This document shows, one piece after another, positions 4,003 to 53,999 of a stretch of DNA of 64,000 nt. The position numbers and the translations under genes are program-made. Under the pieces are notes generated by a model. It was not told where the DNA came from. It saw nothing but the letters and a program-made list of their open reading frames with translations, and ran no database searches. Location of the stretch: NCBI GenBank assembly GCA_020849945.1, contig JADZFK010000045.1, positions 295 through 64,294 on the forward strand. Direction: 5' to 3'. The DNA comes from Pirellulales bacterium. GTDB lineage: Bacteria > Planctomycetota > Planctomycetia > Pirellulales > Lacipirellulaceae. Within the stretch, counting starts at the first letter, position 1. Every line of letters begins with the position of its first letter.

Positions 4003-4185
4003 CCGGATTTCTCACCACGGAGCACACAGAGGTCACGGAGGACAAGCCAAGAGATCGTTTGAAGCAAGGTCAAGCGCCCGTACCTACGAGACAGGGTGTT
4101 TCCGCCGTTCATTGGGGTAGGGGTACTTGCTACTGGTTTTCTCCGTGGCTCCGTGCCTCCGTGGTTTTGATTGTGAGAATTGGGG
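4003..4185 (+). repeat. ~183 bp MITE-like palindromic element, copy 1 (CACGGAG-type arms)
   Basis: Left end CCGGATTTCTCACCACGGAGCACACAGAGGTCACGG pairs with right end CCGTGGCTCCGTGCCTCCGTGG..TGTGAGAA. It is near-identical to 25704-25888. Confidence 0.85.
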
Positions 4186-5337: not shown

Positions 5338-8300
5338 GTGGCGAATCGGGCGTTTATCACAGTAGACGGTAATGAAGCGGCGGCCTCGGTGGCCCATCTC
5401 ACCAATGAAGTGATCGCGATTTATCCGATCACGCCGGCCTCGAACATGGGCGAACTCGCCGACTATTGGACGAGTCGCGGTCAAACGAACATCTTCGGCA
5501 GCGTGCCGGAAGTGATCGAAATGCAGAGCGAAGCCGGCGCGGCGGCCAGCGCACACGGCGCCCTGCAAGCCGGTTCGTTGACGACGACCTTCACGGCTTC
5601 TCAGGGTTTGTTGTTGATGATCCCCGAGATGTTCAAGATTGCTGGCGAACTGACGCCGACGGTCTTTCACATAGCGGCCCGCGCGGTTGCCACGCACGCG
5701 CTTTCGATTTTTGGCGATCACAGCGACGTGATGGCTTGCCGCAGCACGGGTTGGGCCATGCTGGCGGCGAATAGTGTGGAAGAAGCCCAAGATATTGCCC
5801 TGATTGCGCAGGCCGCAACGCTGCGTGCCCGGGTTCCGTTCCTGCATTTCTTCGATGGCTTCCGCACGTCGCACGAAGTTAACAAGATCGAGCAGCTCAC
5901 GCACGACGACATCCGCTGGATGATCGACGAATCGCTTGTGCAGGAGCATCGCGAACGGGCCCTTTCGCCCGATAACCCCGTGCTGCGAGGCTCGGCGCAA
6001 AACCCCGACGTTTTCTTCCAGGCTCGCGAGGCATCGAACCCCTTCTATCTTGCCGTGCCTGGCATCGTCCAAGAAACGATGGACCGCTTTGCCGAACGCA
6101 TTGGGCGACAGTATCGCTTGTTCGAGTATTTCGGCTCGCCCAGCGCGCGGCGTGTATTGGTGATGATGGGTTCGGGCATCGGTGCGGCGGAAGAGGCGAT
6201 CGAACGGCTCATGGCCGAAGGCGAGGAAGTTGGCCTTTTGAAGGTGAGGCTTTATCGCCCCTTCGCTACCGAGGCGTTTTTGGCGGCGTTGCCCGCCACG
6301 GTCGAGCGCATGGCCGTGCTGGACCGCACGAAGGAACCCGGCGCCATTGGCGAGCCGCTTTACCTGGATGTGGTAACGGCCCTGGCCGAAGGGGACTTCG
6401 GGGGATCGGTTTCCGCGGAATCGCGTCCCGCTTGCAGGCCCGAGGTTTACGGTGGCCGCTACGGGTTGGCCTCCAAGGAGTTTACGCCGGCCATGGTGGC
6501 GGCCGTTTTCGATCATCTCAAAGAACCGCAACCCAAGCGCCATTTTACAGTTGGCATTTACGACGATGTCACCAACCTCAGCCTGAAGTGGGATCCCTCC
6601 TTCACCACCGAGCGCGGCGATGTTACCCGGGCCATCTTCTTCGGACTCGGCAGCGACGGCACGGTTGGCGCGAACAAGAACTCGGTCAAGATCATCGGCG
6701 AGAACACGCCGTTGTTTGCCCAGGGCTACTTCGTGTACGACTCGAAGAAGAGCGGGGCCGTTACCGTTTCGCACTTGCGATTTAGCCCGCGGCCGATTCG
6801 TTCGACATACCTTATCGAGGAGGCCAATTTCGTCGCTTGTCATCAATTCCACTTGATTGAAACGCTCGACGTACTGAAGGTGGCGGCCCGCGGCGGCACG
6901 TTCCTGCTCAACAGTCCGTACGCGGCCGACCAGGTGTGGCAACATCTGCCGAGCCAGGTGAAGCGGCAGATCGTTGAGAAGCAGTTGAAGTTCTATGTTG
7001 TCGATGGCCACGGCGTGGCCCGCGAAACGGGCATGGGCGGACGCATCAACACCGCCATGCAAGCCTGTTTCTTTGCCCTGGCGGGCATGCTTCCGCGCGA
7101 TGCGGCCATCGAAGAGATCAAGAATGCGATCCGGAAAACCTACGGCAAACGAGGCCAATCCATCCTCGATCAGAACTTTTCCGCCATCGATCTCGCGCTC
7201 GAACGGCTTCAGGAAGTGAACGTACCGGCCGGTGCCCATGCGATGGAGGAGGGAGGCACGAACGGTTTTGTTTCGTTCCAAACGAACGACGACTTCGTCC
7301 AGCGTGTCACGGCCGCCATTTTTGCTGGCCGCGGCGATCTCCTTCCCGTTAGTGCCATGAATGTCGATGGCACGTTCCCCACGGGTACCGCCAAGTACGA
7401 AAAGCGAAGTATTGCGAACGAGATTCCGATCTGGGACCCGTCCATCTGCATCGATTGCGGTTTGTGCGCGCTCGTGTGTCCGCACTCGGCCATCCGCATG
7501 AAGGCCTTCCCCGACTCGGCGTTGGCGGGCAAGCCGGGCGGATATCAATCGAAGACGTGGAAGGATAAGGATCACGCCGATTACCTGCTGACGATCCAGG
7601 TTGCCCCCGACGACTGCACGGGTTGCGGCGTGTGCGTGGACGTGTGCCCCGCCAAGAGCAAGGAAGCGGTCAAGCATAAGGCGATCAACATGGAGCCGAA
7701 GCTCGACCATTTGAACCGCGAGCGCGAAAACTTCGACTTCTTCCTCAAGATTCCCGAGTTCGATCGCACGCGGGCCAAGGTCGATGTTGTGAAGGGTTGC
7801 CAATTGCTCGAACCCCTGTTCGAGTTCAGTGGCGCCTGCTTGGGCTGCGGCGAAACGCCCTATCTCAAACTCATGAGCCAGTTGTTCGGCGACCGCGCGA
7901 TCGTGGCGAACGCCACCGGCTGCTCCTCCATTTATGGCGGCAACCTGCCCACGACTCCTTGGACGAAAGACAAGAACGGCCGCGGCCCCGCCTGGTGCAA
8001 TTCGCTTTTCGAGGATAATGCGGAGTTCGGCCTTGGCATTCGCCTTGCGGCCGATCAACAGCGCGATTACGCCACCGTGCTGCTAAAGCAATTCGCCGAT
8101 CGATTGGGTGAAATCTTCGTTAGCGAACTGATCGAGTCGAACGAAACAGACGAGGTTTCGATCGCCGCGCAGCGTGATCGGGTAGCCCGGCTGAAGCGAA
8201 AGCTTGCCGAGTTCAACGAGCCGAAGGCCCGCGAACTGGCCAGCGTGGCCGATGCGCTGGTTCGACGGAGTGTTTGGATTGTTGGTGGTGATGGTTGGGC

Positions 8301-9096: not shown

Positions 9097-10101
9097 ATGC
9101 ACGCGGATTTGTCGACTACGTATCTTGGGTTGAAACTGAAGAACCCGGTCATCGCCTCGGCGGGGCCGCTGACGGGCGACTTCGACTCGCTTCGCCGCTT
9201 AGAGGATCATGGCGTGGCCGCCGCCGTGTTGCCCTCGTTGTTCGAGGAGCAAATTGCGCTGGACGAACAACGGATCAATGCCTTCGAGGAATATCAAACT
9301 TTTTCTTCCGCCGAATCGCTCACCTTCTTTCCCCAGGTGAAGGAGTTTAGCGTTGGCCCGCAAGAGTATCTTGGCCTCATCGCACGGGCGGCCGAGGAAC
9401 TTTCGATCCCCATCATCGGTAGCCTCAACGGTTCCTCGCCGGGCGGATGGGTACGCTACGCCAAGCTCATCGAAGAGGCCGGGGCCCATGCGCTCGAACT
9501 TAACATCTACTTCGTACCGACCGATCCCAACCAATCGGCTGCCGACGTCGAGCAACGCTATCTCGATTTCGTGGCTCGTGTTCGCAATGCGATCCAAATT
9601 CCTATTGCTGTGAAGATCGGGGCGCAGTTCACGAACCTTACCAATTTCGTTCCGAAGCTTGCCAAGGCGGGTGCCGATGGCATCGTGCTTTTCAATCGGT
9701 ACCTGGAACCCGATATCGATCTGGATTCGCTCCAACTGATGCCACAACTGGTGTTGAGTCATCGCCACGAACTGCGCGCGCCGCTCCGTTGGATCGCCAT
9801 CTTGCGCGATCACGTTTCCATGTCGCTCGCCGCCACCAGCGGTATCCACTACGCCGAGGACGCCATCAAGTTGCTCCTCGTCGGCGCCGATGCCTGCCTC
9901 GTTACCTCCACCCTGTTGCGACACGGCATCGAGTATGTTGATGAACTGCGGCGCGGCATCCAACAATGGCTGGATGAGCATCAGTACGAATCCGTGGAAC
10001 AACTCAAAGGCAGCATGAGCCACAGCAACGCGCCCGATGCCAGCAACCTCGAACGCGCGAATTACATGAAAGCCCTTGTTTCGTACTCACCCACCACCTA
10101 G
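9097..10101 (+). CDS. Dihydroorotate dehydrogenase-like flavoprotein (TIM-barrel, PyrD-like, function unknown)
   Basis: MHADLSTTYLGLKLKNPVIASAGPL... resembles the DHOD-like family. ATG 9097 is preferred over 9079 because GGGAG lies ~9 nt upstream. Confidence 0.75.
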   Translation: MHADLSTTYLGLKLKNPVIASAGPLTGDFDSLRRLEDHGVAAAVLPSLFEEQIALDEQRINAFEEYQTFSSAESLTFFPQVKEFSVGPQEYLGLIARAAEELSIPIIGSLNGSSPGGWVRYAKLIEEAGAHALELNIYFVPTDPNQSAADVEQRYLDFVARVRNAIQIPIAVKIGAQFTNLTNFVPKLAKAGADGIVLFNRYLEPDIDLDSLQLMPQLVLSHRHELRAPLRWIAILRDHVSMSLAATSGIHYAEDAIKLLLVGADACLVTSTLLRHGIEYVDELRRGIQQWLDEHQYESVEQLKGSMSHSNAPDASNLERANYMKALVSYSPTT

Positions 10102-14554: not shown

Positions 14555-14747
14555 TTCTCACCACAGAGAACACAGAGAACATAGAGGAGAATAAGAGATA
14601 AAGAACACTAATCGTCGCTAATTGCCACTAATGAGGAGTGGTTCAAGAATTTGAGTATTTTTTATCAGTGATAATGAGTGTCGATTAGTGTTCCTAGTTC
14701 TCTCCTGCTTCTTTTTCCTCCGTGTTCTCTGTGCTCTCTGTGGTGAA
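14555..14747. repeat. Palindromic tandem-arm element (CACAGAG type) between gcvT and gcvH
   Basis: TTCTCACCACAGAGAACACAGAGAACATAGAGGAG ... CCTCCGTGTTCTCTGTGCTCTCTGTGGTGAA, with an AT-rich ~120 nt core holding a nested inverted repeat (GAACACTAATCG / CGATTAGTGTTC). Confidence 0.9.
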
Positions 14748-15176: not shown

Positions 15177-15217
15177 AATGATGAATGACGAATGATGAAT
15201 GACGAATACGGAGAACG
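15177..15217. repeat. 14 nt tandem repeat (AATGATGAATGACG x2 plus a partial unit ending ACGGAGAA), solo-arm-like
   Basis: Read directly, immediately after the gcvH stop. Confidence 0.8.
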
Positions 15218-15343
15218 ATGGCGAAAGTTAGCGTCGGTCGCCAGACCGACATCTCAACCAACCACGCCTCCACTTCAATCCCCACCTCTATCCAACTAAA
15301 TCCGACCTTGCGGTCGGCGCTAAGCACTCCGAATCGCACCACG

Positions 15344-16678
15344 ATGCCGTATCTCTACAACACGCCCGAAGATCAATCCGCGATGCTATCCGCCATCGGC
15401 GCTAAGTCAATCGACGAACTGTTCGCGATGGTTCCTGCCGAATTGCGGTTGGGCCGCGCGCTCAACTTGCCGCCCGCGATGAGCGAGCTTGAGCTTGCGC
15501 AGCACATGGATGGCTTGGCCATCCGGAACGAGCACGCGGGCTCGAAGATCTGCTTCCTTGGCGGCGGCAGCTATGACCACTTCGTGCCGTCGGCGGTAGA
15601 TGAACTCGCCGGCCGCGGTGAATTCTATACCTCGTACACGCCCTACCAGGCCGAGGTGAGCCAGGGCAATTTGCAGGTTGTGTTCGAGTACCAATCGCTC
15701 ATCGCACGCCTAACGGGCATGGATGTTTCCAACGCCAGCCTGTACGACGGCGGCAGCGCCACGGCCGAGGCCGTGCTCATGGCCGTCAGCAGCACGAACC
15801 GGTTAGGCAAGGTAGTGCTGCCGACGAGTTTGCACCCCGAATATCGCCAAACGATTGCCACGTACCTGAAGGATATCGGCGTCGAGGTAGCGACCGTCGG
15901 CACACCCACGGGCGTGGTGAAGCCGCAAGACCTTGCGGCCGTCGTTGACGACAAGACGGCCTGCGTTGTCGTGCAGCAGCCGAACTTTTTTGGCTGCATT
16001 GAAGATGCCGCTTCGCTCGCTTCGATCGCCCATGATGCGGGCGCACTCGTTGTGGCCGCGTTCGATCCGATCAGCCTGGGCCTCTTAAAGCGACCCGGCG
16101 ATTGGGGTGCCGATATCGCGGTGGCCGAAGGCCAGTCGCTTGGCACGCCGATGCAATACGGCGGCCCTTACCTGGGCATCTTGGCCTGCCGCGAGAAGCT
16201 CATTCGCCGTATGCCGGGCCGCATCGCGGGCGAAACGGTCGACCGTCGTGGCAACCGTTGCTTCGCCCTCACGCTGCAAACCCGCGAGCAGCACATCCGC
16301 CGCGAGAAGGCCACGAGCAACGTCTGCACGAACCAAGGCCTGTTCGCCCTGCGAGCCACGATCTACCTCGCCCTGCTCGGCCCGCAAGGCCTGAAAGAAA
16401 CGGCCAATCTGTGCCTGCAAAAGTCACGCTACGCGGCCGAGCAACTTTGCAAAAGCGATCGATTTGAACTGGCATTCACTGGCCCCACGTTCAAAGAGTT
16501 CGTCATCCGCGACAAACAAAACCACGTCGAGGAAGTGATTGAGAAGGCCCTCGAAGCCGGCTTCCTCGCCGGCGTGCCGCTGGGAAAGTGGTACCCGGAA
16601 CTTAAGGATTGCTTCCTGGTGGCAGTGACGGAGAAGCGGACCAAGACAGAAATCGATCGCCTTGCAACTGCGCTCTAA
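15344..16678 (+). CDS. gcvPA: Glycine dehydrogenase (decarboxylating) subunit 1
   Basis: MPYLYNTPEDQSAMLSAIG..., YTPYQAEVSQGNLQ, 444 aa. Confidence 0.93.
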   Translation: MPYLYNTPEDQSAMLSAIGAKSIDELFAMVPAELRLGRALNLPPAMSELELAQHMDGLAIRNEHAGSKICFLGGGSYDHFVPSAVDELAGRGEFYTSYTPYQAEVSQGNLQVVFEYQSLIARLTGMDVSNASLYDGGSATAEAVLMAVSSTNRLGKVVLPTSLHPEYRQTIATYLKDIGVEVATVGTPTGVVKPQDLAAVVDDKTACVVVQQPNFFGCIEDAASLASIAHDAGALVVAAFDPISLGLLKRPGDWGADIAVAEGQSLGTPMQYGGPYLGILACREKLIRRMPGRIAGETVDRRGNRCFALTLQTREQHIRREKATSNVCTNQGLFALRATIYLALLGPQGLKETANLCLQKSRYAAEQLCKSDRFELAFTGPTFKEFVIRDKQNHVEEVIEKALEAGFLAGVPLGKWYPELKDCFLVAVTEKRTKTEIDRLATAL

Positions 16679-16695
16679 AAATAGCTAGCGACTTT

Positions 16696-16762
16696 CTACC
16701 ACAAAGAACACCAAGATCACGAAGATGATTTCGAAGGATCGTCTTTGTGTTCTTTGTGGTTC
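16696..16762. repeat. Short palindromic tandem-arm element (CACAAAG variant) between gcvPA and gcvPB
   Basis: CTACCACAAAGAACACCAAGATCACGAAG ... CGTCTTTGTGTTCTTTGTGGT. Confidence 0.85.
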
Positions 16763-16786: not shown

Positions 16787-18307
16787 ATGCGTAACACCCG
16801 CGATACCAAACTGCTGTTTGAACTTTCCGAAGCCGGTCGCCGCGCGCACCGGCTGCCGGCTTGCGATGTGCCTGAGCGTACGGCCAAGGAATTGTTGCCG
16901 GCCAGCTCGCTGGCCGCCGCTCCGCCAGCGTTGCCCGAATTGAGCGAGCCGCAGGTTGTGCGGCATTTTGCGAATCTTTCGCAGCTCAACATGAGCGTCG
17001 ACACGCACTTCTACCCGCTCGGCTCGTGTACGATGAAGTACAACCCGAAGCGGAACGAGCGCGCGGCCCGGATGCCCGGCATCGCCGACGTACACCCGTA
17101 CCAGCCGGAAAGCACGTTGCAAGGCATGTTGCAACTTCTTTACGAGATGCAGGAGTACCTGCAGGAGATTTCGGGGCTACCGGCCTGCTCACTGCAACCG
17201 GCTGCGGGGGCCCACGGCGAGCTTACGGCCCTGTGGGTCGCGGCGGCCTACTTCCGCGATCGTAGCGAAAAGCGCACCAAGGTGCTTGTTCCCGATAGTG
17301 CCCACGGCACGAACCCGGCCAGCGCTTCGATGGCCGGTTTCCAAACGGTCACGGTGAAGACGCTCGCCTCCGGCGCGGTCGACATGGACGACTTCCGCCG
17401 GTTACTGGACGATGAAATAGCCGTGTTCATGATCACCAACCCAAACACGGTGGGCGTGTTCGAGCCGAACATGAAAGCCATTGCCGACGCCGTTCATGCT
17501 CGCGGCGGGCTGGTGTATTTGGATGGCGCGAACATGAACGCGATTCTTGGCATCGCCCGGCCGGGCGATTTCGGCGCCGATATGCAGCACTACAACCCCC
17601 ACAAGACTTTTAGCGGCCCGCACGGCGGCGGCGGCCCCGGAGCCGGCCCGATTTGTGTGGCGGAGAAGCTCGCGCCGTACTTGCCCACGCCGGTGGTAGT
17701 GAAAGTCAAGAGTCTTGAGCCAAGAGTCAAGAGCCAGAAGGATGGCTCCACCGCCTCTCCGGCTCTTGACTCTCCGCTCTTGACTCTTGACTATGATCGC
17801 CCCAAATCCATCGGCCGTGTCCGCGCGTTCTTCGGCAACGTGGGCGTGCTTGTGCGGGCTTACTGTTACATCCGCACACATGGGCCTGATGGGCTGAAGC
17901 GAGTCAGCGAGAATGCGGTGCTCAACGCCAATTATTTGCTCAGCAAGGTGAAGCACTTTCTGCCCGTGCCGCAAGGCGACCGCTGCATGCACGAGTTCGT
18001 CGCCACGGCGGGCAAACTCAAGAGCGAAAAAGGCGTCTCCGCAATGGACATCGCCAAACGCTTGTTGGACTACGGCTTTCATGCCCCGACAGTGTACTTC
18101 CCGCTCTCGGTGAAGGAATCGATCATGATCGAACCGACGGAAACCGAGAGCAAGGAAATGCTCGATGCATTTGCGGAGACGCTCTTCCGCGTGATCGGCG
18201 AGGATGCCGAATTGCTCCACGAAGCCCCTCACAGCACGGCCATCAGCCGACCGGACGACGTCCGCGCCGCCCGGCAACCGATGCTTACTTACTCGTCGAA
18301 AGAATAA
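16787..18307 (+). CDS. gcvPB: Glycine dehydrogenase (decarboxylating) subunit 2, carrying an in-frame palindromic-element insertion
   Basis: LFELSEAGRRAHRLP, NPHKTFSGPHGGGGPGAGP, YDRPKSIGRVRAFFGN. The loop between LPTP and YDRP is unusually long. Confidence 0.93.
   Translation: MRNTRDTKLLFELSEAGRRAHRLPACDVPERTAKELLPASSLAAAPPALPELSEPQVVRHFANLSQLNMSVDTHFYPLGSCTMKYNPKRNERAARMPGIADVHPYQPESTLQGMLQLLYEMQEYLQEISGLPACSLQPAAGAHGELTALWVAAAYFRDRSEKRTKVLVPDSAHGTNPASASMAGFQTVTVKTLASGAVDMDDFRRLLDDEIAVFMITNPNTVGVFEPNMKAIADAVHARGGLVYLDGANMNAILGIARPGDFGADMQHYNPHKTFSGPHGGGGPGAGPICVAEKLAPYLPTPVVVKVKSLEPRVKSQKDGSTASPALDSPLLTLDYDRPKSIGRVRAFFGNVGVLVRAYCYIRTHGPDGLKRVSENAVLNANYLLSKVKHFLPVPQGDRCMHEFVATAGKLKSEKGVSAMDIAKRLLDYGFHAPTVYFPLSVKESIMIEPTETESKEMLDAFAETLFRVIGEDAELLHEAPHSTAISRPDDVRAARQPMLTYSSKE
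17704..17792. repeat. Palindromic AGTCAAGAG-type element inside the gcvPB reading frame
   Basis: AGTCAAGAGTCTTGAGCCAAGAGTCAAGAGCCAGAA ... CCGGCTCTTGACTCTCCGCTCTTGACTCTTGACT. It uses the same units and the same GAGCCAGA inner boundary as the intergenic element at 51988-52113. Confidence 0.85.
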
Positions 18308-18337: not shown

Positions 18338-18497
18338 TTCACCACAGAGGGCACAGAGAACACGGAGAAATTCCAAGAGAAGTTGCACATTGAAAACTGC
18401 CGAAGTCGGGAACTTCAATTTGCATTATTCAATTTGCATTTTGCATTTTGCAATCTCTTCCTCACTTCTCCGTGTCCTCTGTACTCTCTGTGGTGAA
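18338..18497. repeat. Palindromic tandem-arm element (CACAGAG/CACGGAG type) between gcvPB and the lipoate ligase gene
   Basis: TTCACCACAGAGGGCACAGAGAACACGGAGAA ... TTCTCCGTGTCCTCTGTACTCTCTGTGGTGAA. The core has ATTTGCAT(T) tandem motifs. Confidence 0.9.
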
Positions 18498-25703: not shown

Positions 25704-25888
25704 CCGGATTTCTCACCACGGAGCACACAGAGGTCACGGTAAACAAGCCAAGAGATCGTTTGAAGAAGGTCAACCGCCTGTAACTACGAGACAGGGTGTT
25801 TCCACCGTTTATTGCGGTAGGGATACTTGTAACCGGTTTTCTCCGTGGCTCCGTGGCACCGTGGTTTTTTCATTGTGAGAAATGCGGA
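25704..25888 (+). repeat. ~185 bp MITE-like palindromic element, copy 2
   Basis: The first 36 nt are identical to copy 1. The core (AAGAGATCGTTTGAAG..CTACGAGACAGGGTGTTTCC..GGTTTTCTCCGTGGCTCCGTG) is shared, in the same orientation. Confidence 0.85.
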
Positions 25889-33720: not shown

Positions 33721-33822
33721 TTCTCACCACAGAGAGCACAGAGAAATGCAGAAATCGGCTTGTCATTGGCAAACTGCCATTTGCAATGATCATTTCTTAT
33801 TCCCTGGGTCCTCTGTGGTGAA
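33721..33822. repeat. Palindromic tandem-arm element (CACAGAG type), short right arm
   Basis: TTCTCACCACAGAGAGCACAGAGAA ... CCTCTGTGGTGAA. The core has a TCATTGGCAAA/ATTTGCAATGA inverted repeat. Confidence 0.8.
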
Positions 33823-34481: not shown

Positions 34482-34776
34482 TCTCACCACGGAACCGCAA
34501 TACGTGGTACGGACTGAAGTCCGTACCACGCACGATGCGCACCATGCGCGCATCCTACGAACGAAGATTCTACGACAACACAACAAAGGCACGAAGGCGT
34601 GGAGAATTCAGATCGGTCATTGCAAATAGGTTATTTGTCATTGACCATTTCAGAAATGCCCCAATTCCAAATGGCCAAGGACCCATGACAAATCGACTTT
34701 TCCTCCGTGTCTCCGTGTCTCCGTGGTAAATGAATGGTAGGATTTCACCACGGAGCACACGGAGACACGGAGAGAA
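34482..34776. repeat. Compound repeat region: CACGGAG-type arms, a perfect 12 bp hairpin and a back-to-back arm pair
   Basis: TCTCACCACGG at 34482. CGTGGTACGGAC-TGAA-GTCCGTACCACG at 34503-34530. TCCTCCGTGTCTCCGTGTCTCCGTGGT (34699-34729) pairs with ACCACGGAGCACACGGAGACACGGAGA (34743-34776). Confidence 0.85.
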
Positions 34777-48807: not shown

Positions 48808-49416
48808 TCACTTATCCGATCCTTGCCGGTAGATCCCTTGCCGAAGGATGTAGTTCAAGACTGCGTTGGGCACGAATTTCTGACATGCTTCGCCGGCTGC
48901 GACGCGGCGTCGAATCTCGGTGCTGCTCGCATGGACGGCCGGCATTTCGATAATCTGCGGCTGCGTCGTTGTCGCGCACAGCGAGGCAAGGGGCACTAAG
49001 TCGGGTTCGGCATCTCCCGCGCGATGAACGACGAGCGGAGTGGCCAGCCGAAATAATTCGCGGGGGTCTTTCCAGCGTGCCACGTCGCGAAGGGTATCGG
49101 AACCCAACAACAAGAAGAACGTATCGTTCGGACGCTCGGCTCGCATTTGGCCGAGTGTATCGACCGTGTAGCTCTTGCCGCCGCGATCGATTTCAAGCGT
49201 GCAGACACGCCACGCCGGTTCACCGCCAATTGCCAGCCGCAGCATCTCGACTCGCTGGTCGTTGCTGGCGTGGGGGCCGTGCTGCTTCAGAGGCTGTACG
49301 GCCGTCGGCACGAACCACACCTCATCCAAGGCCGCCTGCTCCTGGCAGGCGCGCGCAAGCGCCAAGTGTCCATGATGCACGGGATCGAAACTACCGCCAA
49401 ATATACCAAGCCGCAT
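48808..49416 (-). CDS. nadD: Nicotinate-nucleotide adenylyltransferase
   Basis: MRLGIFGGSFDPVHHGHLALA. Confidence 0.92.
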   Translation of the reverse strand: MRLGIFGGSFDPVHHGHLALARACQEQAALDEVWFVPTAVQPLKQHGPHASNDQRVEMLRLAIGGEPAWRVCTLEIDRGGKSYTVDTLGQMRAERPNDTFFLLLGSDTLRDVARWKDPRELFRLATPLVVHRAGDAEPDLVPLASLCATTTQPQIIEMPAVHASSTEIRRRVAAGEACQKFVPNAVLNYILRQGIYRQGSDK

Positions 49417-49676
49417 AGAGGGTCAAGGGGCAAGGGTCGAGGGTCGAGGGCCAGAATGTAGGTTGTGCATGGGTTGATCGTTTAGCCGCGACGCGGAGCG
49501 GAGCGCGAAGAAGTAGAAAGGGTCTAGGGTCGAGGATCGAGAGCCAGAACGTAGGGGGGCTCACGAGATGGTAGGGATTGATGGTATCGTAATGGTTTAC
49601 GGCGAAAGTCGCCATCGGGCCGATTCAACCCAACGTGTTCTATTCAACCCTCCTTGCCCTCAACTCTCAACCCTCC
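49417..49676. repeat. Tandem-unit repeat region (GGTCGAG/GGTCAAG units) filling the nadD-priA divergent intergenic region
   Basis: AGAGGGTCAAGGGGCAAGGGTCGAGGGTCGAGGGCCAGAATGTAGG at 49417. A second module GGGTCTAGGGTCGAGGATCGAGAGCCAGAACGTAGG at ~49518. A complementary arm CAACCCTCCTTGCCCTCAACTCTCAACCCTCC at 49643-49676. Confidence 0.8.
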
Positions 49677-51977
49677 ATGCCCCAACAGCAATCACTATTT
49701 GATACCGCGCCAGCACCGTGGGAAGTGGACGATGCGGCGGAAGCGCTCATCGCAACGGTGGTCATTGCGGGCGGGCCCGATGGGGAGTTTGATTACCTGG
49801 CCCCGGGCGAACTCGTTGGGGCGGCCAAGTCCGAGCGGCGTTTGGAAGCGGGGCGACGTGTGCGCGTTCCGTTGGGTCGCGGGAACCGCAGCGTGGTCGG
49901 GTATTGTGTGGCGCTCGAAACGAAGCCCTCTGGCGGGCGGAAACTCAAGTCGGTGGCGTCGGTCGTCGATCGCCAATCGCTCCTTTCGCCGCCGATGCTG
50001 CGATTGGCCCGCTGGATGGCCGAATACTACTTATGCCCGTTAGGGCAAGTGCTGGAAGCAATCGTACCGGCCGGCGTGCGGCACGACGCCGGCTCGCGCC
50101 AAGTGGTCCTGCTCGCGGCCGCCCCCGATGCCGCCGAACGCATCGCCGAGGCCAAACTTTCCGCCAAGCAGGCTGCCGCCATGCAACAACTGCTGGCCTC
50201 CGCCACGCCGCTCACCGCCAAGCAACTCGCCTCCCTTGCAGGCTGCACACTCGCACCGATCAACGAGTTGCGCAAGAAAGGATGGATCGTTACCTCCGTC
50301 GAACGTCAAAATGCCGACCGGCTAGCGCCCCATGCCGCGCCTCGCCAAGCTGCGCTCGAGCTCAACCCCGATCAGGTTGCCGCGCTCGATACGATTCGCG
50401 GTGCCTTGCGCGCGACGGAGCACCGCACGATATTGGTACATGGCGTCACCGGAAGCGGCAAGACGGAAGTATACATCCAGGCCATTGAAGAGGTTGTGCG
50501 ATACGGTCGCCAAGCCATCCTGCTGGTGCCCGAGATCAGCCTCACGCCGCAAACGGTCGGTCGATTTCGGGCTCGGTTCGATCGGGTAGCCGTTCTGCAC
50601 AGCCACCTGAGCGATATCGAGCGGCACGAACACTGGCGGCGGATCGCGCGGGGCGACGTGCAAGTGGTGGTCGGCGCGCGGAGCGCGATCTTTGCCCCCA
50701 CGCCCCACCTGGGTCTGATCGTGTTGGATGAAGAACACGAAGCGACCTTCAAGCAAGAAACGGCACCACGATACCACGCCCGCGACGTAGCCGTTCGCCG
50801 AGCGGCCGACCAAAATGTTCCCCTCGTGCTCGCCAGTGCCACGCCCTCGCTCGAAAGTTGGCGCCGCGCCAAGTGTGGCGAGTTCACGCTGGTGGAAATG
50901 CCTCGCCGCGTGCTGAACTTGCCGATGCCCGTGGTCAGGACCATCGATCTGCGGAACGAAGCGTATGCTCGGGGATCACACGGAGCACTGAGTCGACCGC
51001 TGGTTCGCGCTATGGAAGAATCGCTGGGCGAAGGCGGGCAAGTGATTCTGCTCCTCAACCGCCGCGGCCATTCGACGCACATTCAGTGCCCTTCTTGCGG
51101 CAAATCGATGCAATGCCCGGCCTGCAATCTTTCGCTGACGTTTCATCGCCACGACAACCTGGCGGTGTGCCACTACTGCGATTACCAGGTGCCCGCCCCC
51201 ACCAAGTGCCCCGAGTGCGGCAACCCCGGCATACGGTTCAGCGGCTTGGGTACGCAAAAGCTCGAGGCAGAAGTGCGAGCCAGATTCCCCGATTACCCAT
51301 GCCTGCGAATGGATACCGACAGCATGCGTGGTCGCGGCAGCCACGAGGAGGCGCTTGCTGGATTTCGCGAAGGGCGGCATCGCATCTTGTTGGGAACGCA
51401 AATGATTGCCAAGGGACTGGATTTTCCGAACGTAACGCTCGTGGGCGTGGTGAATGCCGATACGGCCCTGCATTTCCCCGATTTCCGAGCGGCCGAGCGA
51501 ACATTTCAGTTGGTAACGCAAGTGGCCGGCCGCACCGGGCGTGGACCGAAGGGGGGCCGCGTGCTCGTGCAAACGCTTTCGCCCGATGCCGCGGCGATCG
51601 TGGCCGCCGTACAGCACGACTTGCAAGCCTTCGCACGACAAGAGTTGCCGACCCGCGAATCGATGGGTTACCCGCCCTTCGGCGCGATGGCGAGGCTCGT
51701 GACGCGAGGGCCGGAAGAACAAACGTCGCTCGCGTTGGCCGACGAACTGGCCCGCCTCCTCCGCGAGTTGGGCGAACCTTGTTCGCCGCCGATTCGGATT
51801 CTGGGCCCCACCGCGGCACCGATCGCCAAACTCCGTGGCGACTTCCGATTCCACATCCAACTCTTCTCGCCCCAGGGTGAACTGTTGCGCAACACGATCC
51901 GTCGCGCAACCCAAGGCCTGAAACCTCCCGACCACTACGCCTGGATCGTGGACATCGATCCGTTGGATATGATGTGA
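49677..51977 (+). CDS. priA: Primosomal protein N' (replication restart helicase)
   Basis: HGVTGSGKTEVY, DEEHE, Cys-rich zinc motifs (CPSCGKSMQCPACNLSLTFH..CHYCDY..CPECG). Confidence 0.93.
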   Translation: MPQQQSLFDTAPAPWEVDDAAEALIATVVIAGGPDGEFDYLAPGELVGAAKSERRLEAGRRVRVPLGRGNRSVVGYCVALETKPSGGRKLKSVASVVDRQSLLSPPMLRLARWMAEYYLCPLGQVLEAIVPAGVRHDAGSRQVVLLAAAPDAAERIAEAKLSAKQAAAMQQLLASATPLTAKQLASLAGCTLAPINELRKKGWIVTSVERQNADRLAPHAAPRQAALELNPDQVAALDTIRGALRATEHRTILVHGVTGSGKTEVYIQAIEEVVRYGRQAILLVPEISLTPQTVGRFRARFDRVAVLHSHLSDIERHEHWRRIARGDVQVVVGARSAIFAPTPHLGLIVLDEEHEATFKQETAPRYHARDVAVRRAADQNVPLVLASATPSLESWRRAKCGEFTLVEMPRRVLNLPMPVVRTIDLRNEAYARGSHGALSRPLVRAMEESLGEGGQVILLLNRRGHSTHIQCPSCGKSMQCPACNLSLTFHRHDNLAVCHYCDYQVPAPTKCPECGNPGIRFSGLGTQKLEAEVRARFPDYPCLRMDTDSMRGRGSHEEALAGFREGRHRILLGTQMIAKGLDFPNVTLVGVVNADTALHFPDFRAAERTFQLVTQVAGRTGRGPKGGRVLVQTLSPDAAAIVAAVQHDLQAFARQELPTRESMGYPPFGAMARLVTRGPEEQTSLALADELARLLRELGEPCSPPIRILGPTAAPIAKLRGDFRFHIQLFSPQGELLRNTIRRATQGLKPPDHYAWIVDIDPLDMM

Positions 51978-51987
51978 GGGGAGGGGT

Positions 51988-52113
51988 TAGAGTCAAGAGT
52001 CAGACAGTCAAGAGCTTAGAGTCAAGAGTCAAGAGCCAGATAGGAATTGCGCAAAGCAGTTTGTTCGTTGCCTAACTTTCTGGCTCTTGACTCTTGACTC
52101 TCGACTCTTGACT
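51988..52113. repeat. Palindromic AGTCAAGAG-type tandem-arm element between priA and the histidine kinase gene
   Basis: TAGAGTCAAGAGTCAGACAGTCAAGAGCTTAGAGTCAAGAGTCAAGAGCCAGA ... TTCTGGCTCTTGACTCTTGACTCTCGACTCTTGACT. Confidence 0.9.
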
Positions 52114-52190
52114 TTTCTCCCTTGGCCGTTTCCGCGTAGCGACCGTACAATCAGGGGGTAGAACCGAGAATCTAGCATCCGGTGTCGGGC

Positions 52191-53999
52191 ATGTCGTATC
52201 GGACCATTAAACGTGTGCTGGGCGAAACCAACCTCGAGCGGAAGTGCCGCTGGTGGTTCGGTATCTCGCTGGTCGTTTTGCTCACGCTCAGCTTCACTTG
52301 GTATGGCCGGCGAACCGACACCATCGTCAAGGAGCTTAATCCCAAGTTCATCGGCCCCGAGTTGGTTCGGGCGGGTTGGCTCGGCGTTCACTTTGCACAA
52401 CTCGACCAGATCAAAGACGGTTTGTTCGCCGACCTCGTGGAGAGCAGCCAGGCGATGGGCCGCAGGTTCGAGTGGGAAGCGATACTGCCCACCGACGGTT
52501 ACGAATCGCCGCCGGCCGAGCAGTTCCGCCCCCGCGATGCTCGCGAGCAGCGTCTGCTGGCCAAGTGGTCGATCCCTTTAACCCCCGACGAGAAGCGCGA
52601 GGCGGGCAACGTTCAGGGTTCGCCCTCGACCTCGCAGCCCTTCTTGATTCCGTCGCGTGGCACCGACGACCGGTACGTTAAGGAAACCGACGGCCGCGAT
52701 TCGTTCATGTTCTACCAACCCATGTACGCGACGAAGTCGTGTATTCGGTGTCACGCAAATATGCTGGATGCCGGTGGTAAGCGGAAGCTGGAAGAGGGCG
52801 ACCTGATCGCCGTGGTTCGCGTTACGACCGACTACGGTCCCACGGCGGCGGAAGTCGCCAAGAACCAGGCTTTGCTCTGGACCGCGGCCATCGTCGTCGG
52901 ATTCGTTTCGATGTTTTCGTTGTGGGCCGTCGTGCGGTACGTGATCGTGAAGCCCGTAACCCACCTGCGCGACGTTGCGAATGCCGTCCGCGAGGGCGAT
53001 ATCGAAAAGCGAGCCGTCATCCGCACGGGCGATGAATTCGAGGAGTTGGGTGCCGCGTTCAACCGCATGTTGCGGCAACTGCTGAGCCAGCAAAGCGAAC
53101 TCCAAGAAAGCAAAAGCGAACTCGATGTGCGGCTCGACGAGCTGGCCCAGGCTAATATGCGGCTCTACGAAATGAACCGCCTCAAGAGCGACTTTCTCGC
53201 CACCGTAAGCCACGAGTTGCGCACACCGCTCAACAGCATCTTGGGCTTCAGCGAAGTGCTGAGCAGCATCGATTCACTCGACGACAAACAACGCCGCTAC
53301 GTCGGAAACATCCAGCGCTCGGGCCGCATGCTGCTCGATATGATTAACGACATCTTGGACCTCGCAAAAATGGAAAGCGGCAAAATGGAGGTCCGTCAAA
53401 CCGAGTTTCGCATCAGTTCGCTAATTTCCACCATGTGCGAAATGGCGCGCCCGCTGGCCGAGAAAAAGAACATCGACCTCGATTGCGAGGCCCCCACCAA
53501 CTTGCCACCTCTCCGCCAAGATCAAGCCAAGGTGCAGCAGGTCCTCAACAATCTGCTCTCCAACGCAATTAAGTTCACGCCCGAAGGAGGCCGAATCCGA
53601 GTCTCGGCCGAACAAGACGAGCACGGTGACTTGCGGCTCAAGGTGGCCGATACCGGCATCGGCATCAGCCCAGATGAACAGCAGCTTGTGTTCGAGAAGT
53701 TTCGGCAAGCCTCCGGCGTACTGCCCGATGGCGACGCCATGACCCGCGAATACTCGGGCACCGGGTTGGGCCTCTCGATCGTCCGCGAAATCTGCCGCCT
53801 GCTCGGTGGCGATGTCACCCTGGAAAGCGAACTCGGCAAGGGAAGCACCTTCTCCGTTCGCCTGCCTTGGCGGTTGGAAGACTCGCCACGACTCGACACC
53901 CAACTACGCGAAGACCTCGACCAACTGGCCCGTAACGCCCGGCTCGCCGAAGTCACCTCCTCCACCGCCCCGCACTTGCAAGAACAAACAACCCGCTAA
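52191..53999 (+). CDS. Membrane histidine kinase with a periplasmic CXXCH-containing (DUF3365-like) sensor domain, HAMP, HisKA and HATPase_c
   Basis: TM1 WWFGISLVVLLTL. YQPMYATKSCIRCHANM (CXXCH codons 52740-52754). TM2 then HAMP. H-box SHELRTPLNSILGF. GTGLGLSIV. Confidence 0.88.
   Translation: MSYRTIKRVLGETNLERKCRWWFGISLVVLLTLSFTWYGRRTDTIVKELNPKFIGPELVRAGWLGVHFAQLDQIKDGLFADLVESSQAMGRRFEWEAILPTDGYESPPAEQFRPRDAREQRLLAKWSIPLTPDEKREAGNVQGSPSTSQPFLIPSRGTDDRYVKETDGRDSFMFYQPMYATKSCIRCHANMLDAGGKRKLEEGDLIAVVRVTTDYGPTAAEVAKNQALLWTAAIVVGFVSMFSLWAVVRYVIVKPVTHLRDVANAVREGDIEKRAVIRTGDEFEELGAAFNRMLRQLLSQQSELQESKSELDVRLDELAQANMRLYEMNRLKSDFLATVSHELRTPLNSILGFSEVLSSIDSLDDKQRRYVGNIQRSGRMLLDMINDILDLAKMESGKMEVRQTEFRISSLISTMCEMARPLAEKKNIDLDCEAPTNLPPLRQDQAKVQQVLNNLLSNAIKFTPEGGRIRVSAEQDEHGDLRLKVADTGIGISPDEQQLVFEKFRQASGVLPDGDAMTREYSGTGLGLSIVREICRLLGGDVTLESELGKGSTFSVRLPWRLEDSPRLDTQLREDLDQLARNARLAEVTSSTAPHLQEQTTR

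Follow-up and report, generated by a model that had tools for sequence, protein, structure and literature searches.

Inside the gcvPB gene of a Pirellulales bacterium, which encodes subunit 2 of glycine dehydrogenase, lies a long DNA palindrome that is part of the open reading frame (ORF). The locus raises the question whether this segment is native coding sequence or a repeat that entered a conserved enzyme, and, in the latter case, why the same place in the gene is filled in some relatives and empty in others. We analysed the window, i.e. the whole stretch of 64,000 nucleotides that contains the gene, together with orthologous proteins and public genomes. In our opinion the segment most probably represents a non-autonomous hairpin repeat of a dispersed Planctomycetota family, comparable to the repetitive extragenic palindromic (REP) sequences and the Rickettsia palindromic elements (RPEs), which is translated at the tip of a β-hairpin and tolerated there, and the site has probably been colonised repeatedly.

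A palindromic repeat in the reading frame of gcvPB

The repeat search found two inverted arms of 35 nt each (17704-17738 and 17758-17792), which are 86% complementary and separated by 19 nt, and phasing against 27 other copies resolved five heptads in each arm and set the bounds of the element to 17703-17793 (Table 1). An earlier note on this DNA had described an imperfect palindrome of approximately 89 nt lying in frame in gcvPB, whose units and inner boundaries recur in an intergenic element at 51988-52113. Both observations could be reproduced: the frame through the palindrome is uninterrupted in the ORF 16787-18307 (..VVVKVKSLEPRVKSQKDGSTASPALDSPLLTLDYDRP..), and the 9-mer AGTCAAGAG occurs 12 times in the window compared to 0.24 expected occurrences, a number that was reached in none of 100 shuffles. 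All 12 occurrences fall into the gcvPB element or the intergenic element, and the 21-mer AGTCAAGAGTCAAGAGCCAGA, which spans the inner boundary, is likewise confined to these two loci in the window if up to 3 mismatches are permitted. The 9-nt repeat unit assumed in the note needs to be replaced by a unit of 7 nt (AGTCAAG / GAGTCAA), because the phasing against the 27 other copies gives heptads. As RNA, the gcvPB element has a folding energy of -59.4 kcal/mol (z = -8.1). A search of the whole window with Rfam 15 at the gathering score resulted in no match, only in a sub-threshold likeness to miRNA-precursor hairpins.

The protein of the window is 100% identical to an NCBI protein with the Pfam domains PF02347/PF21478 from a Pirellulales metagenome-assembled genome (MAG), and it aligns to the Thermus thermophilus protein 1wyt_B over residues 9-306 and 334-503 (E = 5.7e-145). 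The match ends at residue 306 and restarts at residue 334, leaving just six Thermus residues unaligned. The insert is located between the large part that binds pyridoxal phosphate (PLP) and the C-terminal domain. Across the element the translation reads VVVK-VKSLEPRVKSQKDGSTASPALDSPLLTLD-YDRP, in which the segments SLEPR.. and ..DGSTASPALDSPLLTLDYDRPK are predicted from the open frame. The segment between the LPxP and YDRP motifs comprises 33 residues, one fewer than the 34 counted before, and the expectation that orthologues have about a dozen residues at this place proved correct. The loop of Thermus 1wyt_B is 12 amino acids long, and a short hairpin is found at the corresponding position of the Thermus protein. 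In a distant set of 64 metagenome GcvPB genes with 48-69% identity (among the matches listed), the stretch from (Y/F)LPxP to xDRPxSIGR has 11-18 residues, and exactly 12 in 42 cases. The close set consists of the 120 nearest database proteins, which are 79-100% identical and named Pirellulales or Lacipirellulaceae; 47 of them show the 12-residue form VVAK(D/N)G(D/E)RYxLD, and the other 73 (approximately 61%) carry inserts of 22-57 residues at the identical position, with an open frame and no stop codon. The segment is thus an insertion relative to an ancestral 12-residue hairpin.

A local picture of this hairpin was taken from an AlphaFold2 model, which was built from 71 close homologues and is poor overall (mean predicted local distance difference test, pLDDT, of 60). 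According to this low-confidence model, strands at residues 304-306 and 332-334 would be joined by a loop, in which residues 310-327 have pLDDT values below 50. The final codons of the right arm (LTLD) occupy the place of the second β-strand, (Y/R)xLD, of the orthologues.

Inserts and empty alleles at one codon-level site

Among the 73 insert peptides, at least seven sequence types that are unrelated to one another can be distinguished. Type A (VKSQESRVKSQ..ALDSRLSTLDS), to which the window belongs, was found in 19 proteins, followed by type C (ERSEVRGQRSE..TSDLRPPTS) in 15 proteins, type B (EGSGFRVQGS..LNPEPRTLNP) in 13 proteins plus 2 chimeras, type D (LRIADCGLRIE..SEIRNPKSEI) in 7 and type E (EEPGVRSQESG..PTPDSRLPTP) in 5 proteins, and the remaining insert-bearing orthologues hold types F, G and H or inserts that were not classified. 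Because the orthologues contain at least seven insert types or none, the gcvPB site is a hot spot. The segment in the window is one allele of this multi-family hot spot rather than a single private insertion.

In the following, P-numbers denote GcvPB orthologue proteins and L-numbers DNA stretches of relatives or public contigs. The DNA of the insert was in hand for type A (window, L001, L093), type B (L002), type C (L003, L004, L115), type F (L005) and type H (L006). The inserts of types A, B and C are palindromes whose arms consist of the heptads AGTCAAG, GGTTCAG and AGGTCAG in tandem, respectively, and which fold at -47 to -68 kcal/mol (z -2.3 to -7.7), whereas the empty sites have z values of about 0 and fold no better than shuffles. 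Type F forms only a short CCCTCCC/GGGAGGG hairpin and type H is not palindromic. Orthologues with a loop of equal length and sequence made of non-palindromic DNA would have spoken for native coding sequence; the long loops of the type A, B and C orthologues are themselves palindromic DNA. Some alleles appear chimeric or nested, such as P0099 (B arms around a G core), P0110 (B plus C) and also P0019.

The empty site itself is a 6-bp mini-palindrome, GTCGCC-AAAGAC-GGCGAC. In filled alleles 9-12 nt of it are absent, namely the (D/N)G(D/E) codons and sometimes the following R codon. The window allele and P0007 additionally lack the native SYxLD, and LTLD of the element stands for the second strand. 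We considered whether the loop beginning with KDG in the window is the preserved ancestral turn K(D/N)G(D/E) to which arms had been added, an idea that received no support from the other type-A and type-C alleles. Other internal length variation among the 120 proteins is restricted to just one small site after residue ~160, where a rarer, SPAHGKAGGPPAAT-like in-frame variant was noticed in P0065, P0093 and P0113. The C-termini of P0061, P0073, P0076 and P0010 also vary; some of these extensions read through a different palindrome type (RVGTAHQ..GGQCPPY).

Closely related proteins can differ in the insert. Outside the loop, P0112 (type C) is 99.2% identical to the empty P0118, P0021 (type B) is 97.2% identical to the empty P0037, and P0060 (type C) is 96.8% identical to the empty P0098. 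The nearest relative of the window protein carries type C. Among nearest neighbours, presence or absence of an insert agreed in 70 cases compared to 61.6 expected (p = 0.12), i.e. it barely tracks GcvPB similarity, whereas the insert type agreed among carriers in 30 cases compared to 11.6 expected (p < 0.0002). Therefore, the types are inherited, but their gain, loss or exchange proceeds fast. The stretches L005 (type F) and L006 (type H) are 98-100% identical over the gene, but only 88% identical in the 90-nt windows flanking the inserts, and this dip in identity is the signature of an imported recombination tract. A linkage test of insert type with the 45 flanking residues on each side was uninformative, the flanks being ~94% identical in all classes.

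Type A and related repeats outside gcvPB

The strict pattern GAGTCAAGAGCC-N16-46-GGCTCTTGACTC was scanned in one genome per GTDB species and detected at 26 loci. Of these, 24 belong to Planctomycetota MAGs (Pirellulales, Planctomycetaceae, Schlesneria), and the other two come from a Polyangiaceae bin and from a bin labelled Alphaproteobacteria. The same arms thus exist at 26 other loci of public genomes, which bears out the proposal of the earlier note that the segment is a repeat element and not native coding sequence. When the copies are aligned on the inner boundary, each arm shows five heptads in the fixed order RAGTCRA-GAGNNNA-GAGNNNA-GAGTCAA-GAGCCRG, followed by A, and the conservation stops sharply outside the first heptad.

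Several copies lie in frame in other proteins. One is found in NirB, between Pyr_redox_2 (residues 14-294) and Rubredoxin_C (376-441), another one in a VWA-domain protein, at the identical site in two genomes and with Pfam domains on both sides, and a third in the C-terminal part of a 1373-aa amidohydrolase ORF. Type-A copies also occur in gcvPB of two further MAGs, and others are situated between genes. In all in-frame copies listed the right arm is read as ALDS(R/P)LS(T/A)LDS. When an artificial type-A peptide of 49 aa was used as query, a protein search yielded nothing at E <= 0.001. Depending on the orthologue, the linker of the VWA protein contains type A, a variant of A, type D, one of two additional types that resemble palindromes or simply low-complexity sequence; the RVGTAHQ..GGQCPPY palindrome type is present in this linker of some orthologues as well. 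A CTCCGCT unit of the right arm was considered as a selected mutation that removes an in-frame TGA; this was rejected, because intergenic copies frequently contain the unit as well. In the frame of gcvPB, the intergenic copy of the window would still read GCT CTT GAC TCT TGA.

Types B, C and D are not restricted to gcvPB either. In IMG/VR contig stretches, heptad trimers of type B were found 63 times, of type C 48 times and of type D 54 times, compared to a chance expectation of ~0.03 by our own estimate for a 21-mer. Hence, each gcvPB type that can be checked is a repeat existing elsewhere. The B, C and D trimers occur as direct arrays, and approximately one third of the B arrays form hairpins, in which the purine-rich array is always 5'. 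Type-B hairpins on 'viral' IMG/VR contigs (L221 34-3369, L205 3373-4569, L178, L181) have long right arms broken by CTGCTTCC and a shared loop motif, ACGCGCAAGCG. The loop is thus conserved in some families, in contrast to type A.

The intergenic copy of the window begins 11 nt past the stop codon of the ORF 49635-51977, ends ~70 nt before the ORF 52182-53999 and has additional left-hand heptads at 51989-52005. Its folding energy as RNA is -79.5 kcal/mol (z = -8.2). The right-arm units CTCTTGACT (52084-52113) hold repeated -35-like TTGACT boxes, and a promoter-like TTGGCC-18-TACAAT (52122-52151) follows the copy, ~30 nt before the next ORF.

Table 1. Coordinates of gcvPB, of its hairpin element and of related features in the window.
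Feature	Position	Strand	Description
Palindromic element, type A	17703-17793		91 nt, in frame within gcvPB; two 35-nt arms and a 19-nt loop
Left arm	17703..17738	+	Five heptads AAGTCAA GAGTCTT GAGCCAA GAGTCAA GAGCCAG plus A; translation K-VKSLEPRVKSQ-K
Loop	17739..17757	+	19 nt; codes for KDGSTAS; unlike the loops of other family members
Right arm	17758..17793	+	Inverted heptads CCGGCTC TTGACTC TCCGCTC TTGACTC TTGACTA; translation PALDSPLLTLD
gcvPB (glycine dehydrogenase subunit 2)	16787..18307	+	506 aa, intact; from ORF and homology
gcvPA	15218..16678	+	From ORF and operon context
Intergenic copy, same family	51988..52113	.	Arms 52006-52043 and 52076-52113, 89% complementary; loop of 32 nt, unrelated
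Related half-element cluster	49416..49680	.	Two direct GAGGGTC/AGGGTCG heptad arrays, each ending in GCCAGAA; read by eye

In the half-element cluster, the GCCAGAA ends of the arrays resemble the inner boundary of the family, and a C-rich stretch resembling an inverted arm follows, as judged by eye. A second class of intergenic hairpins was noticed at 14562-14742, 16698-16760, 18338-18497 and 33724-33821, i.e. one of them in the spacer between gcvPA and gcvPB and one directly 3' of the gcvPB stop codon; their arms consist of tandem units of ~9 nt, CACAGAGAA / TTCTCTGTG with the variant CACAAAGAA, and their cores are unrelated. Furthermore, units of 8 nt (CTCCGTGG / CACGGAGA) form short arrays at 4141-4164, 25841-25864 and 34703-34773, the last of which contains an inverted pair.

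The operon order gcvT-gcvH-gcvPA-gcvPB-lplA-FHA is kept in relatives, and a HicAB pair upstream is conserved in their loci. Extra genes are wedged among gcvH, gcvPA and gcvPB in some relatives, for example a Fic-domain gene in L002 (8483-9967) and, in L003, a 244-aa ORF and a PF05635 gene (9259-9993, 7422-7844). A long match in L009 (2254 nt) was examined as a possible large insert and rejected, as it corresponds to gcvPA and gcvPB joined by tblastn. Arrays of the heptad (AATGACG)n were found in the window at 15177-15207, upstream of gcvPA, in L001 at 16633-16686 and in L003 at 7417-7453 and 7842-7888. In L003 two inverted arrays of this kind bracket the PF05635 (23S_rRNA_IVP) gene, an insertion in the interval from gcvH to gcvPA. 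This suggests that gene-sized cargo can be flanked by heptad arrays. A direct (TAACTGA)n array was seen in L001 (16685-16716), a Pirellulales MAG; TAACTGA is known as a repeat of marine Beggiatoaceae (PMC4679880).

Origin of the insert and comparison with known systems

According to the explanation that we favour, one copy of a dispersed palindromic repeat would have become fixed within gcvPB, at the tip of the short β-hairpin VVxK-(D/N)G(D/E)-RYxLD that links the PLP domain to the C-terminal domain. The ribosome would read through the element and thereby add a hydrophilic, probably disordered loop, which the enzyme tolerates. The element itself would be selfish or neutral for GcvPB, with no role in the enzyme. 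In our view the hot spot results from three causes in combination: the tip is nearly the sole permissive internal position in the protein, so that insertions are strongly filtered; the empty site, a mini-palindrome and thus hairpin-prone DNA, may act as a structural target; and homologous recombination exchanges alleles between lineages. With respect to mobilisation, our first guess is a process similar to that of REP doublets forming hairpins (REPINs) and their REP-associated tyrosine transposases (RAYTs), acting on pairs of arms.

Other explanations need to be compared with this one. An alternative that we regard as unlikely is selection for structure: gcvPB would benefit from a strong hairpin that its mRNA or DNA forms where the domains meet, or from the additional surface loop, and any hairpin former would be kept there. 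The structure might slow the ribosome between the domains, stabilise the message or alter docking. The filling of ~61% of the close orthologues at one position, by main types of similar size (mostly 34-39 residues), fits such a role, as do the arm complementarity that is kept across different sequence types and the location of the NirB copy, likewise at a domain boundary. However, the insert is absent from 47 of the 120 close orthologues and from all distant ones among the matches listed, pairs with 97-99% identity are unlike in its presence, the arms recur in intergenic DNA and in other, unrelated proteins, and the palindrome is weak in type F and lacking in type H. There is a much smaller chance that the inserts arose locally, growing in place from the native GTCGCC-AAAGAC-GGCGAC through slippage of heptamers and quasi-palindrome copying on a hairpin template, so that every lineage would evolve a heptad of its own and nothing would have entered from elsewhere. 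Such an origin could draw on the 6-bp inverted repeat exactly at the insert position, on the different heptads and chimeric alleles (P0099, P0019, P0110) at one site and on the fact that, among the long simple repeats of prokaryotes, those with heptanucleotide units are the most frequent and are prone to slippage (PMC4679880). It is largely refuted by the finding that the arms of the window match the 26 loci in other genes and genomes heptad by heptad, with an exact core of 24 nt; moreover, types B, C and D are widespread elsewhere, too. Since type A is alike in MAGs labelled Schlesneria, Planctomycetaceae and Pirellulales, its heptads must be stable over long times, and switching in situ within 1-5% protein divergence is therefore implausible.

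It is even less probable that the segment is absent from the mature protein owing to removal from the RNA or to ribosomal bypass, as in T4 gene 60 or the mitochondrial byp elements. The very stable hairpin within a coding region, and the fact that byp elements are mobile hairpin-forming inserts too, would agree with bypass, but the inserts of all 73 insert-bearing orthologues, with their many lengths and types, are in frame and without stop codon. The junction codons GTG AAA | GTC .. GAC | TAT GAT provide neither a stop nor matching take-off and landing codons. Furthermore, LTLD of the right arm replaces the deleted native (S)YxLD, which makes sense only if the segment is translated. Practically no weight remains for an artefact of assembly or binning; the source is a MAG and chimeric reads can create palindromes, but dozens of independent assemblies from NCBI, JGI, ENA and Logan show the same architecture at an identical codon position.

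Nevertheless, several findings fit poorly with the favoured picture of a dispersed, mobile hairpin repeat or limit it. The type-A loops (17-44 nt) are mutually unrelated, even among five copies of one MAG, which simple copy-and-paste of a whole element would not predict, and both arms of one element are often unlike in heptads 2-3. No target-site duplication is visible flanking the 28 aligned copies; the filled gcvPB alleles show none either and miss 9-12 nt of the empty site instead of duplicating it. In the ~64 kb of the source genome and the 8-kb stretches of the others, no transposase or mobilising gene was linked to the family. The translation of the segment is deduced from the open frame and its conservation, and the local loop picture comes from a structure model of poor quality (mean pLDDT 60). 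Independent insertions, exchanged alleles and replacement in situ may all have contributed to the pattern among the orthologues. Because of the unique loops, the non-identical arms, the missing duplication and the small deletion, neither a classical miniature inverted-repeat transposable element (MITE) nor simple copying fits. A different and rather doubtful idea is that the hairpins are made arm by arm at the target by a structure-targeted or break-repair process that homes to existing hairpins. An identical templated sequence of 35 nt with five heptads would then be added on both sides of a lesion, which would yield the constant X...rcX polarity, a unique filler loop and a small target deletion, and no target duplication. 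Sites once hit, such as the β-hairpin tip of gcvPB and the VWA linker, would become landing pads where the families replace one another. If true, the hairpins would represent a new class of mobile or scar elements in bacteria, by which allelic series of surface loops are generated naturally in housekeeping proteins.

The gcvPB site can be regarded as an experiment of nature in which proteins gain new surface loops. Besides a ready-made permissive position in GcvPB for engineering, it offers a tractable marker to study the spread of these repeats. In the annotation of Pirellulales proteins, low-complexity inserts of this kind should be anticipated and not be treated as errors by the pipelines. 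The most unusual feature is that one codon-level site is occupied by many repeat families or empty. In the literature that we searched, by topic and with the literal repeat sequences, we found no paper on these elements, nor a description of a conserved enzyme with a site that is either empty or occupied by one of seven or more repeat families and whose alleles move by recombination.

The elements resemble the RPEs, i.e. dispersed palindromic repeats of ~100 nt that lie in frame in unrelated, apparently functional proteins and also between genes (cf. PMC3733652). The earlier note had drawn this comparison, and it holds as an analogy, because copies are in frame in several unrelated proteins (GcvPB, NirB, the VWA protein and the amidohydrolase). 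Differences concern the hosts, here free-living Planctomycetota with large genomes, the five-heptad arms, the common arms with centres that are not common, and the presence of many families at one site; given the organism and the heptad build, homology to the Rickettsia RPE families seems unlikely. REPs and REPINs are inverted pairs of short motifs that form a long hairpin around a less conserved spacer and are mostly extragenic, downstream of genes, with some cases inside ORFs (PMC3733652; PMC3116915), and different REPs have been reported at about one recB site in two Xanthomonas species (Di Nocera et al., 2013, PMC3733652). Type A shares with them the two inverted conserved units, the less conserved spacer and the long hairpin, but its arm consensus has no GTAG or CGTC tag and its arms are 35 nt long with a periodicity of 7 nt. 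Similar to MITEs, the elements are short, non-coding and dispersed, with the 35-nt arms as terminal inverted repeats; in contrast to MITEs, they show no target-site duplication, differ in the interior between type-A copies and have no known parent insertion sequence. From the bypass elements of T4 gene 60 and the byp type they differ in having neither matching take-off and landing codons nor an in-frame stop.

The short tandemly repeated repetitive (STRR) sequences of cyanobacteria are heptanucleotide tandem repeats. With these and the TAACTGA repeats of Beggiatoaceae (PMC4679880), the elements share the 7-nt periodicity, the abundance between genes and the occasional location inside ORFs. Types B, C and D also occur as plain direct arrays, like such repeats, but the elements described here are distinguished by arrays of always five units, in which the variants follow one another in a fixed order, by inverted pairs and by a constant polarity with the purine-rich array 5'. 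In textbooks, palindromic repeats in frame figure as curiosities of Rickettsia and of a few proteobacteria rich in REPs. The same phenomenon is now seen in free-living planctomycetes and with a distinct design, i.e. five phased heptads in each arm, common arms and unshared loops.

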